Positions 35,711 to 39,749 of a stretch of 64,000 nt of DNA are shown piece by piece. Under the pieces are notes generated by a model that saw nothing but the letters and a program-made list of their open reading frames with translations, did not search any database and was not told where the DNA came from. The DNA is from Ekhidna sp. (GTDB taxonomy: Bacteria; Bacteroidota; Bacteroidia; Cytophagales; Cyclobacteriaceae): positions 2,741,171 to 2,805,170 of the forward strand of contig NZ_OZ243102.1 in the NCBI RefSeq assembly GCF_965212185.1, read 5' to 3'. The position numbers were made by a program, and so were the translations under genes. Every line of letters starts with the position of its first letter. Position 1 is the first letter of the stretch.

Positions 35711-36556
35711 CTATGCTTTAAGCTCCATATCCAAATTGAATTGCATTTTCGATTTTGCTCCACCTCTAATTGTACCGCTTACAGGCATTGTATTTTCATA
35801 ATGCGCACTCTTTGCAATTGGAATATGCGTATGCCCTGCTGCTATTCCGTGAGTAGGGTCAAATCCTAGCCATCCTGCACCCGGAATGTAAGCGATAACC
35901 CAGGCATGCAACTCAAAAACAGGCTCTTCTACATCCAGGTAATAGTATCCACTTACAAAACGTGAAGCTACACCAAGATGCCTCAAACATTGAATTTGTA
36001 GCCATGCTAAGTCACGACAAGAGCCTCTTCTTAAGCGAAATGTATCATTTGGTGACATTGGTACTCCCTCCTCTCGTATTTCAACCTTAAAATCAGAATG
36101 AATCTGCTGGGTGAGTGCCAGGATAAATGAGGCAGTATCATTTTTAGCAGATTTGAGAATTGCGTTTAGGTAACTAACTATCTCATTGGATAACTCAGTA
36201 TGATTTAATGAAGCTGTTAAAAGGTGTTTTAATTGATTAGGATATTCAAATGGAACGGTGAGAAATGATCCGGGATAAATGAGGTAGTTGAATGGATTAA
36301 ATTCTTGAATTGTTACCGTGCAATCGAGTGTGATTTTTAATTCTTTATGCAGCCCCTCAAACCAACAAAAAAGAACCATATTATTTTCAATGTCCATTTG
36401 CTCTGAAAAGCCCACTGGATCAGGAGAGACTTTCAAATGAAACTTTTCTACCGTGAGATAATGATCTGTGGATGGTTTAAATCGTAATGTATGAGGTTCA
36501 AAAAACACCTCGTCATCAAATTGATAAATCGTTTCATGATGTATTTTAAGATCCAT
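35711..36556 (-). CDS. Transglutaminase-like cysteine protease/ligase family protein (Bact_transglu_N plus transglutaminase core).
   Basis: Cys-His-Asp triad context RGSCRDLAWLQIQCLRHLG ... ELHAWVIAY ... GFDPTHG; N-terminal MDLKIHHETIYQFDDEV region typical of the family. Confidence 0.85.
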   Translation of the reverse strand: MDLKIHHETIYQFDDEVFFEPHTLRFKPSTDHYLTVEKFHLKVSPDPVGFSEQMDIENNMVLFCWFEGLHKELKITLDCTVTIQEFNPFNYLIYPGSFLTVPFEYPNQLKHLLTASLNHTELSNEIVSYLNAILKSAKNDTASFILALTQQIHSDFKVEIREEGVPMSPNDTFRLRRGSCRDLAWLQIQCLRHLGVASRFVSGYYYLDVEEPVFELHAWVIAYIPGAGWLGFDPTHGIAAGHTHIPIAKSAHYENTMPVSGTIRGGAKSKMQFNLDMELKA

Positions 36557-37326
36557 TAGCTACCGCTCCATTTACCTTCATCAAACATATCTTCCTCTTC
36601 CATATTGTTGGAGATATAGATTTTTTCGATCCAATCATCAGGTAAATCATTGATGGCTTCACTTATTTTTGAATCCCACATTTTTGAAATATCGGATAGC
36701 TCATCTTTCTTATACCTGGTCTCTGTTATGTTAAAAGAATCTTTTTCATAATGAACTACATCAATGGGAAAATCAACGTCATTGGCACTAATGCGTGTCG
36801 CATCAAAAGAGAGTAGCCCTGCTTTTAAAGCAAATTTCAATGAAGAATTATATCGAATGGAGCGATCAAGAATTGGCTTGCCATACCCACTATTTCCAAT
36901 GATTACAAATGGCGATCCTTCTGATACTTCCACCCAATTACCCTCGGGATACAATAAAAATATTTTATGCTCATCATCGTCTTCGAGCTGCCCACCAACA
37001 ATAGAAAAGAGGTTGAAGCTAAGGCCCGATTCCTTCAATGATGCTTTATCTTCATTAGCTGCCCTTTTTACCTGATCAGCAAAGGCATTCACTGCTTTGT
37101 ACAGCTTATTGAATGATTCATCATTTTCTTCAATTATTTCCTTGAAATAGGTGATGGCTTTATCTCGAACAGAACGAAGGCCTGATGTCATAATGAAGAA
37201 TGAGTGTTTTTTCTTATTTACTGTGAAGACCTTCTTGGCCTTTGCAGTTTCATTTCCAGAGGTAATCCGAGTATCAGCAATGCCTATGAAACCGGTTTTG
37301 AGTTTAATGCCTAAGCAATATGTCAT
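36556..37326 (-). CDS. Anbu (ancestral proteasome beta-subunit-like) Ntn-hydrolase peptidase.
   Basis: N-terminus MTYCLGIK, with Thr nucleophile at position 1 after Met removal and Asp at position 17 (IGIADTR). Size ~256 aa. It is embedded between the alpha-E and transglutaminase genes with 4-nt and 1-nt overlaps. Confidence 0.7.
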   Translation of the reverse strand: [256 protein letters not shown]

Positions 37327-38300
37327 TGATTTGTTGTTTGTGTTTGATTTGAAAAATTATCCCACGAAAAGAAAGTCAAATAAATAGCGTTAGACACCTC
37401 ATTAAGTTCCAATTGGAAGTTATCAAGGTACTCATGAAGACCTACGTTGAATACTTCTTCAATGTCGGCGTATTCAAGGTTTGATTTTAATCGTCCTAGT
37501 CTCTTCTCAGCCATATTAGCATATCCCTGACTACTTCCAGTAATCGCTTGAAGTGATTCCTCTGCTTCCTCCAGACAATTCATCATCGATCGTGGAAATT
37601 CTTTATCGAAGATGAGAAATTCAGAAATAAACAAAGGCGACAGCTTCCCTCGTTTTTTACGGTACATATCATAAGCACTTACTGATTTAAGTAAAGAGGC
37701 CCATTGAACCAAATCCAAAGGTGACCCCACTTCCTCAACTGAAGGTAAGAGCATGTGATACTTTACATCCAACACCCTTGAAGTTTTATCGGCTCGCTCA
37801 ATCAGCTGACCTATCTTACCAAAATGATATCCTTCGGTTCTGGAAATAGTGGAATCAAAAATTCCATATAACAGCTGACAACTCTTTTTAACTTCTAAAA
37901 AGTAGTTTCGAGGGTCATGCTTTTCCCACTGTTTTTTGTTTACTCCTTCCCTTACATGATAGTAAAGTGAATTGATTTGTTCCCACACTTCTCGTGTAAT
38001 ATCCGGCCGAATGGCTCGAGCATTCTCACGGGCATTGCAGATGCTATTGTAGATAGAGTTTGGGTTGTTTTCATCGAAACCAAGGAAATGAATGACACTT
38101 GTTTTATCAACATTATCATGGGTACTTTCATAAAGATTATAATCTCCGGTGGTCACAATAACCGGTTTCCATTGCTCTGTTCCCCCTGGTGGCATTTCCA
38201 AAGAAAGGTTGAAATTAACATCCAGAAAGCGTGCATAATTTTCCGCACGTTCAACATATCTATTCATCCAATACAGGGCATCTGCAACTCTACTTAGCAT
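37323..38300 (-). CDS. Alpha-E domain protein (DUF403).
   Basis: Hallmark N-terminus [28 protein letters not shown]; all-helical, ~325 aa. Confidence 0.85.
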   Translation of the reverse strand: [325 protein letters not shown]

Positions 38301-38312
38301 CTCTTTTCTTGT

Positions 38313-39749
38313 TTATTTGTCCAGTACCCATGTGTCCTTGCTCCCACCTCCTTGAGATGAGTTAACTACCAATGAACCCTTCTTTAAAGCCACCCGTGTC
38401 AAAGCCCCAGGAATAATCTTAATGTCCTTTCCATACAAAATATAGGGCCGCAAGTCTACATGTCTTCCTTCAATGGATCCTTCGGTTAAGGTTGGAACTC
38501 TGGAAAGATTTAATACTGGTTGTGCGATGTAATTTCTGGGGTTCTCTAATATTTTGGCTCTGAATTCTTCATGCTCTTTTTTGGTAGCCTTAGGTCCAAT
38601 CAGCATACCATATCCACCAGAAGCATCTGTTTGCTTTATGACCAGATTGGCAATATTTTCTATAACATATTTTAAGTCTTTTTTCTCGCCACATAAGTAG
38701 GTCGGTACATTAGGTAAAATGATGTCTTCATCCAGGTAGTATTTTACTATCTTATCAATATATGTGTAAACCGCTTTGTCATCGGCCACTCCCGTGCCTG
38801 GAGCATTTACAAGGACTACATTTCCCTTTTTGTAAGCATTGAATAATCCGGGTGTCCCAAGGAGTGAATCTTTTCTAAAAACCTTCGGATCGAGAAATTC
38901 ATCATCCACTCTTCTATATATCACATCCACACGCTGTAGCCCACGAATCGTTTTCATATAGACAATATCATCTTCAACCACTAAATCCCTCCCTTCTACT
39001 AACTCCGCTCCCATTTGCTGTGCCAAGTAGGAGTGCTCGAAATAGGCGGAATTGTATATTCCAGGTGTAAGTACTGCTATTGTTGCCGGAGTTATTGGTG
39101 TGAGTGACTCCAGCATATCTCTCAAATGATGCGAATAATCCTGCACTGGGCGAACATTCAATTTTTCGAATACTTCAGGAAATGTTCGCTTAAGAATTTC
39201 GCGATTTTCCAGCATGTAGGATACACCTGATGGGCACCTAAGGTTATCCTCCAGCACATAAAATCTCCCATCACCGTCACGAATGATGTCACTACCACTG
39301 ATGTGTGTCCAAACATTTTGTGGTGGTTTTAAGCCTTCGCATTCTTTTAGATATTCGCCTGAAAAAATCAGGTCTTTTGGTATAATCTTATCCTTTAAGA
39401 TCTTCTGCTCATTGTATAGATCACTAATGAAAAGATTGAGTGCTTCAATTCGCTGTTTGAGACCTTTCTCCAAAAAAGCCCAATCCTTTCCACTTATTAT
39501 CCTGGGAATTAAGTCGAGATGCAGTATCCGTTCAACGCCCTGATTATCACTGTAAACATTAAAGGTCATCCCTAAGGACAACTGCGCTCTATCAGCTGAG
39601 TGCTGCAGGAAATTGAGCCTTTTCCAGCCCATTTTCTGTATCCGTTCCTTGAATATCTGGTAATGAGGTTGAATTGAATGATCCTCCATCACCATCTCAT
39701 CGAAGAAGCCTGTAGTATCGTAGGAATCAAACTGTATCTTAGGCATCAT
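38313..39749 (-). CDS. Circularly permuted type-2 ATP-grasp protein (DUF404/DUF407).
   Basis: ~478 aa; conserved blocks LIPRIISGKDW, YVLEDNLRCPSGVSY and RVALKKGSLVVNSSQGGGSKDTWVL; first gene of the four-gene operon. Confidence 0.85.
   Translation of the reverse strand: MMPKIQFDSYDTTGFFDEMVMEDHSIQPHYQIFKERIQKMGWKRLNFLQHSADRAQLSLGMTFNVYSDNQGVERILHLDLIPRIISGKDWAFLEKGLKQRIEALNLFISDLYNEQKILKDKIIPKDLIFSGEYLKECEGLKPPQNVWTHISGSDIIRDGDGRFYVLEDNLRCPSGVSYMLENREILKRTFPEVFEKLNVRPVQDYSHHLRDMLESLTPITPATIAVLTPGIYNSAYFEHSYLAQQMGAELVEGRDLVVEDDIVYMKTIRGLQRVDVIYRRVDDEFLDPKVFRKDSLLGTPGLFNAYKKGNVVLVNAPGTGVADDKAVYTYIDKIVKYYLDEDIILPNVPTYLCGEKKDLKYVIENIANLVIKQTDASGGYGMLIGPKATKKEHEEFRAKILENPRNYIAQPVLNLSRVPTLTEGSIEGRHVDLRPYILYGKDIKIIPGALTRVALKKGSLVVNSSQGGGSKDTWVLDK

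Follow-up and report, generated by a model that had tools for sequence, protein, structure and literature searches.

The stretch of DNA analysed here, hereafter the window, comprises 64,000 nucleotides of the Ekhidna sp. genome (contig NZ_OZ243102.1). Its marine host belongs to the Reichenbachiellaceae (Cytophagales, Bacteroidota), in agreement with the Bacteroidetes-like background noted in an initial annotation of the letters alone. Four co-directional genes on the minus strand fill positions 35711-39749, and we describe them here as an Anbu operon; in the list of open reading frames (ORFs) their bounds agree to the base with those of the initial annotation. In the order of reading, they encode a cpATP-grasp ligase of the COG2308 type (38313-39749, 478 residues), an Alpha-E protein (COG2307 or DUF403; 37323-38300, 325 residues), Anbu (ancestral beta subunit), which is a proteasome-like N-terminal nucleophile (Ntn) hydrolase (36556-37326, 256 residues), and a transglutaminase-like protein of the COG1305 type (35711-36556, 281 residues). 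Gene families were assigned by Pfam profile search and solved relatives by HMMER alignment to chains of the Protein Data Bank (PDB); the Alpha-E protein was placed by Pfam, and the other three by Pfam, solved structures (those of Anbu in the case of the hydrolase) and homologues. None of the four proteins has a model in NCBIfam, and no second copy of any of these genes is present within the window. The junctions, read directly from the sequence, show the 1-4 nucleotide overlaps and the 12-nucleotide gap that had been noted initially: the TAA of the ATP-grasp gene is separated by 12 nucleotides from the ATG of the Alpha-E gene, the Alpha-E and Anbu genes overlap by four nucleotides (ATGA), and the Anbu and transglutaminase-like genes by one (TAATG). 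Such overlapping or nearly abutting stop and start codons suggest translational coupling of the four genes and, together with the lack of an internal terminator above background, the tight junctions are consistent with a single transcript. Between positions 34000 and 42000, predicted sigma-70 promoters and intrinsic terminators showed no excess over shuffled sequences (20 vs 22.6 and 7 vs 5.9, respectively).

Relatives were collected by scanning one genome per species, which yielded 401 loci with an Anbu relative, and the best 80 of these were compared; their Anbu proteins are 60-83% identical to that of the window and come nearly all from Bacteroidota. With gene order taken from tblastn searches with the window proteins, the order ATP-grasp, Alpha-E, Anbu, transglutaminase-like protein was found in 32 of the 80 loci, in addition to the window. 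Across these collinear loci, identity amounts to 72-85% for the ATP-grasp protein, 57-76% for Alpha-E, 71-83% for Anbu and 43-54% for the transglutaminase-like protein. The four-gene arrangement and the family matches are far beyond chance, given such extreme E-values and 32 independent genomes that share the arrangement.

The search recovered each of the four families that had been proposed. The ligase matches the Pfam models CP_ATPgrasp_2 (5e-167) and CP_ATPgrasp_1 (6e-139) over the full profile length (PF04174/PF14403) and is a close relative of PDB entry 3n6x (1.3e-164 over residues 13-476), with very numerous invariant positions among the homologues. Its reading frame opens with two consecutive ATG codons (MMPK), and as most homologues begin with one methionine (MPK, MAK, MSK and similar), the second ATG, at 39746, is probably the true start. 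The Alpha-E gene lies directly downstream, and its product matches Pfam Alpha-E (PF04168, 4e-99) over residues 1-311, covering the full profile from residue 1. This protein belongs to a very large family, with at least 7888 homologues at E<=1e-10, and is 100% identical to the NCBI entry 'alpha-E domain-containing protein [Ekhidna sp.]', that is, it has been annotated already. Alignment of the homologues reveals two invariant motifs, E17-R18 and E168-R169. A solved structure related to Alpha-E was not detectable by sequence search; the AlphaFold2 model is all-alpha, with a predicted local distance difference test score (pLDDT) of 73.8. In this model, residues 170-207, which contain some of the best-conserved positions of the protein (directly following E168-R169 and including T173-H182), have pLDDT values below 50 and are flanked by confidently predicted helices, consistent with a segment that would become ordered only upon binding of a partner.

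Anbu matches the Pfam family Proteasome with 1.8e-7 (31.5 bits against a curated cut-off of 22.4), and its solved-structure matches at E<=0.01 are Anbu chains only (5nyj at 1e-33, 5loy at 1e-32, 5lox at 5e-25, and also 5nyf and 5nyw), HslV and 20S subunits being absent from these matches. The alignments reach through the C-terminal part of these Anbu chains (residues 1-227/231 of the query against 1-238 of the chain). There is no propeptide, the threonine following Met1 directly (MTYC), and Met-Thr-Tyr-Cys, Asp17 and Lys31, together with one 10-residue segment, are invariant in 80 of 80 Anbu homologues. Of the catalytic residues Thr1, Asp17 and Lys33 that the initial annotation expected, the first two are found as numbered, whereas the lysine is Lys31, which corresponds to Lys32/33 elsewhere through a one-residue loop deletion. 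Beyond a conserved LPDDW.xK motif, the C-termini of the aligned homologues carry variable tails of 0 to about 20 residues, mostly acidic, the tail of the window protein lying within 36556-36610 on the minus strand.

The transglutaminase-like protein combines an N-terminal Bact_transglu_N domain (2e-19) with a Transglut_core domain (1.6e-14), and its papain-like core carries Cys180, His217 and Asp233 in the motifs GSCRD, LHAWV and GFDPT. These three residues align with the cysteine, histidine and aspartate of PDB entries 3isr (7e-7) and 6g49 (4e-5) and are invariant in 68 transglutaminase-like sequences. All the motifs on which the initial annotation had relied, namely the Alpha-E N-terminus, Thr1 and Asp17 of Anbu and the Cys-His-Asp context of the transglutaminase-like protein, are present, and its view that the four components are intact is borne out by the conserved catalytic residues and the strong profile matches. 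None of the four enzymes is degraded, strong purifying selection acts on all of them, and their genes form a single compact unit. Based on the Pfam and PDB matches, the invariant catalytic residues, the gene order in 32 loci and the window, the tight junctions and the published description, the locus is almost certainly the known Anbu operon, complete, intact and chromosomal.

The Anbu operon is already known, having been in the literature since 2008-09 and in thousands of genomes. Valas and Bourne (2008) named Anbu and described its operon with COG2307, COG2308 and the transglutaminase COG1305 (PMC3235984), and Iyer et al. (2009), as cited in later papers (PMC5666114, PMC6376114), proposed a peptide-synthesis or tagging system. 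Structures followed in 2017-18 (PMC5666114, PMC6376114): Anbu is a dodecameric, proteasome-like open split ring held by its C-terminal helix H5, and Fuchs et al. (2017), in reporting Anbu structures, showed covalent modification of Anbu-1 by proteasome inhibitors and defined two subtypes (PMC5666114). The summary in the initial annotation (an operon from comparative genomics, solved structures and no demonstrated substrate) agrees with these papers, and in the literature after 2018 we found no functional assignment for the operon and one experimental mention, a negative one, of the mycobacterial proteins Rv2411c and Rv2567. The operons of Proteobacteria and Cyanobacteria (for instance Pseudomonas aeruginosa PA1733 and Yersinia bercovieri) contain the same four families, co-directional and tightly linked, with a propeptide-less Anbu bearing Thr1, Asp17 and the lysine, a transglutaminase-like Cys-His-Asp and no AAA+ gene nearby. 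In the Ekhidna copy Anbu precedes the transglutaminase-like gene, whereas the order described by Piasecka et al. is the reverse (PMC6376114). Other clusters lack Anbu. Those of Burkholderia cenocepacia (I35_5080-83) and of Mycobacterium tuberculosis (the Rv2411c and Rv2567 regions) have the same core of ligase, Alpha-E and transglutaminase-like protein, but no proteasome-like hydrolase, and the Burkholderia cluster is NtrC-dependent. The mycobacterial genes are presumably orthologues, and we take Rv2567 to be an ATP-grasp/Alpha-E fusion. COG2308 is likewise present in genomes without Anbu (PMC3235984).

Another difference between the Ekhidna Anbu and the proteobacterial type lies in the S1 pocket. 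The published pocket of Anbu-1 (T20, F30, T48, L52 and S55) is amphiphilic, whereas that of Anbu-2 is basic and has been proposed to favour acidic substrates (PMC5666114). Mapping by HMMER alignments to Cons-Anbu (an Anbu-1 consensus protein) and to the Hyphomicrobium Anbu places I20, A27/A29, T46, R50 and R53 of the Ekhidna protein at the positions of T20, F/Y30, T/S48, L52 and S/T55 of Anbu-1, and it is the replacement of L52 and S/T55 by arginines that makes the pocket basic. R50 and R53 occur in 79 of 81 aligned Anbu sequences, the remaining two being gapped at these positions (one of them is a truncated ORF). As judged from these alignments, the predicted S1 pocket of the Ekhidna protein is of the basic kind that characterises Anbu-2, and the invariant two-arginine pocket in this Bacteroidota lineage is an addition of the present analysis. 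The Anbu-2 reference, CHU_3460 of Cytophaga hutchinsonii, also comes from the Bacteroidota, and three of its five published residues (I20-A29-R46-R50-T53) are the same in Ekhidna, namely I20, A29 and R50. The other two are swapped (R46/T53 vs T46/R53), and both pockets contain two arginines, at positions 46 and 50 in CHU_3460 and at 50 and 53 in Ekhidna. Since C. hutchinsonii has two Anbu paralogues (PMC6376114, PMC3235984), the Ekhidna lineage may correspond to the other paralogue rather than to CHU_3460, as far as the pocket residues can tell.

ATP-grasp enzymes activate a carboxylate as an acyl-phosphate, which is then attacked by an amine, and papain-like Cys-His-Asp enzymes and Ntn hydrolases with an N-terminal threonine have peptidase or amidase chemistry. 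Given this chemistry and the release of phosphate from ATP by the orthologous ATP-grasp protein of the Yersinia operon (PMC6376114), the best overall explanation of the locus is probably that of an Anbu operon working by ATP-dependent amide ligation followed by hydrolytic trimming. The ATP-grasp protein, acting with Alpha-E, would convert a carboxylate into an acyl-phosphate at the expense of ATP and form an amide (peptide or isopeptide) bond, thereby adding an amino acid or a short peptide onto a peptide or a protein. Both hydrolases would then cut amide bonds in the ligation product or in the modified substrate, the transglutaminase-like enzyme as a peptidase or amidase through its Cys-His-Asp residues and Anbu through its N-terminal threonine. 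As the S1 pocket contains two invariant arginines, cleavage by Anbu would probably follow an acidic residue (Glu or Asp, or a gamma-glutamyl-type linkage). By extrapolation from proteobacterial copies, the module would probably be switched on under nitrogen scarcity and serve protein or peptide turnover, and its substrate would be encoded away from the operon. That ligation and trimming take place on a peptide or protein substrate is a tentative proposal, to which we give somewhat less than an even chance.

The nitrogen link in this proposal comes from experiments on other bacteria. In nitrogen-limited P. putida the Anbu operon was the most up-regulated gene set (PMC3235984), and the DUF404/407-DUF403-transglutaminase cluster of B. 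cenocepacia is dependent on NtrC and sigma-54 (PMC5491218). On a megaplasmid of Acidithiobacillus caldus (NZ_CP005987.1, 87-6624), two divergent Anbu paralogues, annotated as 'hypothetical protein' (1368-2132) and 'peptidase' (5001-5771), the latter followed by a transglutaminase-like coding region (5815-6624), lie beside a divergently transcribed glnL-ntrC pair; this gene neighbourhood independently hints that the two are linked, Anbu and the regulation of nitrogen metabolism. In the window, the leader or promoter region upstream of the ATP-grasp gene spans 125 nucleotides on the minus strand (39750-39874) without a recognisable signal, and an Rfam scan of this leader for riboswitches (e.g., glutamine) found nothing.

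Several observations weigh against the ligation-and-trimming proposal. Inspection of the leader by eye revealed neither a sigma-54 (-24/-12) element nor a clean Bacteroidetes TAnnTTTG element, and no shared operator could be seen by eye among 36 homologous upstream regions, in which likeness is confined to very close relatives and the rest are too diverged; nitrogen regulation, including control by NtrC and sigma-54, is documented only for proteobacterial copies. Purified Anbu proteins lacked peptidase activity when offered the usual proteasome substrates, the acidic Z-LLE-AMC among them; a stable complex with the remaining operon proteins could not be detected, and the ATPase activity of the ATP-grasp protein was not stimulated by Anbu (Piasecka et al. 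2018, PMC6376114). Fuchs et al. considered a role in peptide synthesis less likely than plain protein degradation (PMC5666114). No substrate, product or phenotype has been reported for any member of the operon, and the Alpha-E model and a fold search with it gave no clue to function. Finally, in about 40 loci of the Spirosomataceae type, Alpha-E, Anbu and the transglutaminase-like gene occur without an adjacent cpATP-grasp gene, which indicates that coupling of the ligase to the hydrolases in cis is not universal.

The same chemistry might instead serve a small-molecule pathway, in which the ATP-grasp/Alpha-E pair would make a low-molecular-weight amide, such as a glutathione- or glutathionylspermidine-like peptide or a nitrogen-storage compound, that the transglutaminase-like protein and Anbu would recycle as amidohydrolases, with no protein being tagged. 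We regard this alternative as doubtful. Among solved structures the nearest, 3n6x, bears the deposited name 'putative glutathionylspermidine synthase', although this label comes from structural genomics and is unverified. Next to the operon, no gene for a tag or a substrate is conserved, some Ntn hydrolases are amidases that act on non-peptides (PMC6376114), and induction under nitrogen limitation would fit nitrogen recycling (PMC3235984, PMC5491218). Other uncharacterised ATP-grasp enzymes have also proved to make metabolites, as illustrated by Rv1722, which is linked to gamma-aminobutyric acid (GABA)-trehalose, but the candidates Rv2411c and Rv2567 did not synthesise GABA-trehalose, the one metabolite tested. 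Moreover, a dodecameric split ring that has numerous active sites and a groove for binding peptides argues for polypeptides as the substrates of Anbu (PMC5666114).

A more specific form of the ligation-and-trimming proposal can be considered for the Bacteroidota in the light of the basic pocket, namely a glutamylation-type system of writing and erasing, in which cpATP-grasp and Alpha-E would add Glu or a gamma-glutamyl or otherwise acidic peptide to proteins or peptides, and the arginine-lined Anbu-2, with the transglutaminase-like cysteine hydrolase, would specifically recognise this acidic mark and remove or degrade it. We consider it improbable; if true, it would represent a bacterial counterpart of polyglutamylation and deglutamylation, or a tag-directed proteolysis that operates without an AAA+ unfoldase.

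The comparison of related loci shows that three arrangements of the Anbu operon genes coexist in the Bacteroidota. Besides the order of the window, three loci (L050, L063 and L078) have ATP-grasp, Alpha-E, transglutaminase-like protein and Anbu, the same order that Piasecka et al. described. Their Anbu proteins are 62-63% identical to that of the window, with 28-31% for Alpha-E and 52-54% for the ATP-grasp protein, which suggests that one Anbu lineage has been combined with different lineages of ligase and Alpha-E. The third arrangement is that without an adjacent cpATP-grasp gene (L033-L049, L052-L062, L064, L068, L070-L071, L073-L074, L076-L077 and L079-L080), found in Dyadobacter, Runella, Persicitalea, Emticicia and others; in the Dyadobacter locus L035 (6941-9574), Alpha-E, Anbu and the transglutaminase-like gene are flanked on one side by a divergent gene for a HerA-like ATPase and on the other by genes for a phosphoglucomutase and an aminotransferase. 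A search of plasmid records for the proteobacterial gene order retrieved only solitary or rearranged Anbu genes, a solitary one being found, for example, on an Azospirillum plasmid.

These arrangements bear on the possibility, preferred by Fuchs et al., that Anbu is a stand-alone bulk protease for turnover during starvation, the ligase pair and the transglutaminase-like protein being merely co-regulated and having no substrate in common with it. Solitary Anbu genes such as the one in Azospirillum, as well as the Spirosomataceae loci, speak for this possibility, as do the reaction of Anbu-1 with proteasome inhibitors, a ring architecture suggestive of processivity (PMC5666114) and in vitro data in which neither a stable complex with the other operon proteins nor functional coupling to them could be detected (PMC6376114). 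On the other hand, the adjacency of the four genes across phyla, which has survived rearrangement of the gene order in the Bacteroidota, would be difficult to account for if the genes were not functionally coupled, the overlapping stop and start codons suggest coupled translation, and no peptidase activity has been measured for Anbu alone (PMC6376114). All together, we consider a stand-alone protease unlikely, and ATP-dependent ligation followed by trimming remains the explanation that we prefer.

The initial annotation had pointed to the nearest neighbours of the operon as candidate functional partners. These genes do exist: a convergent pair on the plus strand, encoding a TPR protein and a 292-residue ORF (34319-35705), approaches the operon to within five nucleotides (35705/35711), and a DUF4386 membrane protein (39875-40531; Pfam 1.3e-35) is separated from it by 125 nucleotides. 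Their physical closeness is, however, the only point in favour of a partnership, and we judge it very improbable. None of the flanking genes of the window (TPR, the 292-residue ORF, DUF4386, YCII, DUF2200, a 179-residue ORF, the S15 peptidase and SPFH) is found in any of the 80 related loci. When all ORFs of at least 70 residues within 5 kb of the operon were clustered across the 33 collinear loci, no flanking family occurred in more than 4 of the 33, and none of the recurring ones includes a window gene. A search of seven proteins against the PADLOC defence models matched no family. A strong terminator-like hairpin, GAGACCACC-AGGA-GGTGGTCTC followed by a T-run, lies at 34835-34856 on the plus strand, directly 3' of the TPR stop codon, and the 292-residue ORF (34827-35705, plus strand) overlaps it; an internal methionine near 34941 precedes a lipoprotein signal, MRLTILLIPFLLISC, with the lipobox LLISC. 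Judging from these signals, the ORF probably starts near 34941 and encodes an exported lipoprotein on a transcript separate from that of the TPR gene, which also argues against a partnership, since a signal peptide is absent from all four proteins of the operon.

The same surveys separate the operon from the better-known proteolytic systems. Anbu shares with HslV and the 20S proteasome the Ntn-hydrolase fold family and catalytic residues of the Thr1/Asp17/Lys33 type, but, unlike HslVU, the 20S proteasome and the Pup system, the Ekhidna operon has no AAA+ unfoldase, alpha subunit, Pup-like tag gene or PafA-type ligase nearby. The Pfam scan detected no unfoldase or alpha-subunit gene among 27 neighbouring ORFs, the flanks of the 33 loci contain no conserved small ORF or family that could provide a tag protein or a dedicated ligase, and the junctions within the operon leave no room for a tag-protein gene. 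The Anbu module is self-contained, as the lack of a conserved flanking family implies, with its substrates either encoded elsewhere or being general cellular components. A small, very acidic ORF family (MRCTVKVLDIKTINEIDGAWDDADYVELLDRMNFPDAQ...) has members at most 5 kb from the operon in 4 of the 33 collinear loci, in one of them (L002, 4882-5103, plus strand) just upstream of the ATP-grasp gene and on the same strand; this family is absent from the window and too rare to count as an operon partner.

The wider surroundings are an unrelated chromosomal mix of mraZ/mraW, a beta-lactamase-fold protein, a MacB/FtsX permease, an SPFH protein, two tRNAs, an S15 peptidase, sensor kinases and a TonB receptor. 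The GC content of the operon (0.37-0.41) is typical of the rest of the window, and no integrase is present among the Pfam-scanned ORFs, which span the window from about 20 to 56 kb; on these two grounds an origin of the operon from a mobile island was rejected. Despite this rejection, tRNA fragments are found 2.7 kb from the operon. Next to the genes for tRNA-Asp (33413-33486) and tRNA-Gln (33491-33563), an ORF-free stretch (32567-34318) contains tRNA-like fragments at 32860-33048 on the minus strand: a match to the tRNA model at 32860-32939 (31.7 bits, gathering score 29), whose variable/T region is oversized and which ARAGORN did not call, a YrlA (Y RNA-like) match at 32910-32987 with 34.8 bits, under the gathering score of 69, and two short matches resembling tRNA or transfer-messenger RNA (tmRNA) 3' ends (32963-32980 and 33031-33048). 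These fragments could be degenerate tRNA genes, a tRNA-like small RNA or attachment-site remnants of an old integration. On the other side of the operon, a 203-residue ORF (43797-44408, plus strand) with PAS and HisKA domains and no HATPase_c possibly represents a sensor histidine kinase that has been truncated or split.

The Ekhidna copy of the operon is an ordinary one, in which neither an additional gene nor a fusion or a regulatory element hints at a substrate, and, as one of thousands of copies, annotated already, it brings the function no closer. What the present comparison adds is the R50/R53 pocket in the Bacteroidota lineage, the three gene arrangements within the phylum and the lack of conserved neighbours, and, given the latter, substrates should be sought genome-wide rather than next door. 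The Anbu operon is among the more widespread bacterial clusters without an assigned function, and Anbu stands near the root of proteasome evolution; real progress would therefore come from learning what is written by the ligase and what is cleaved by the two hydrolases.

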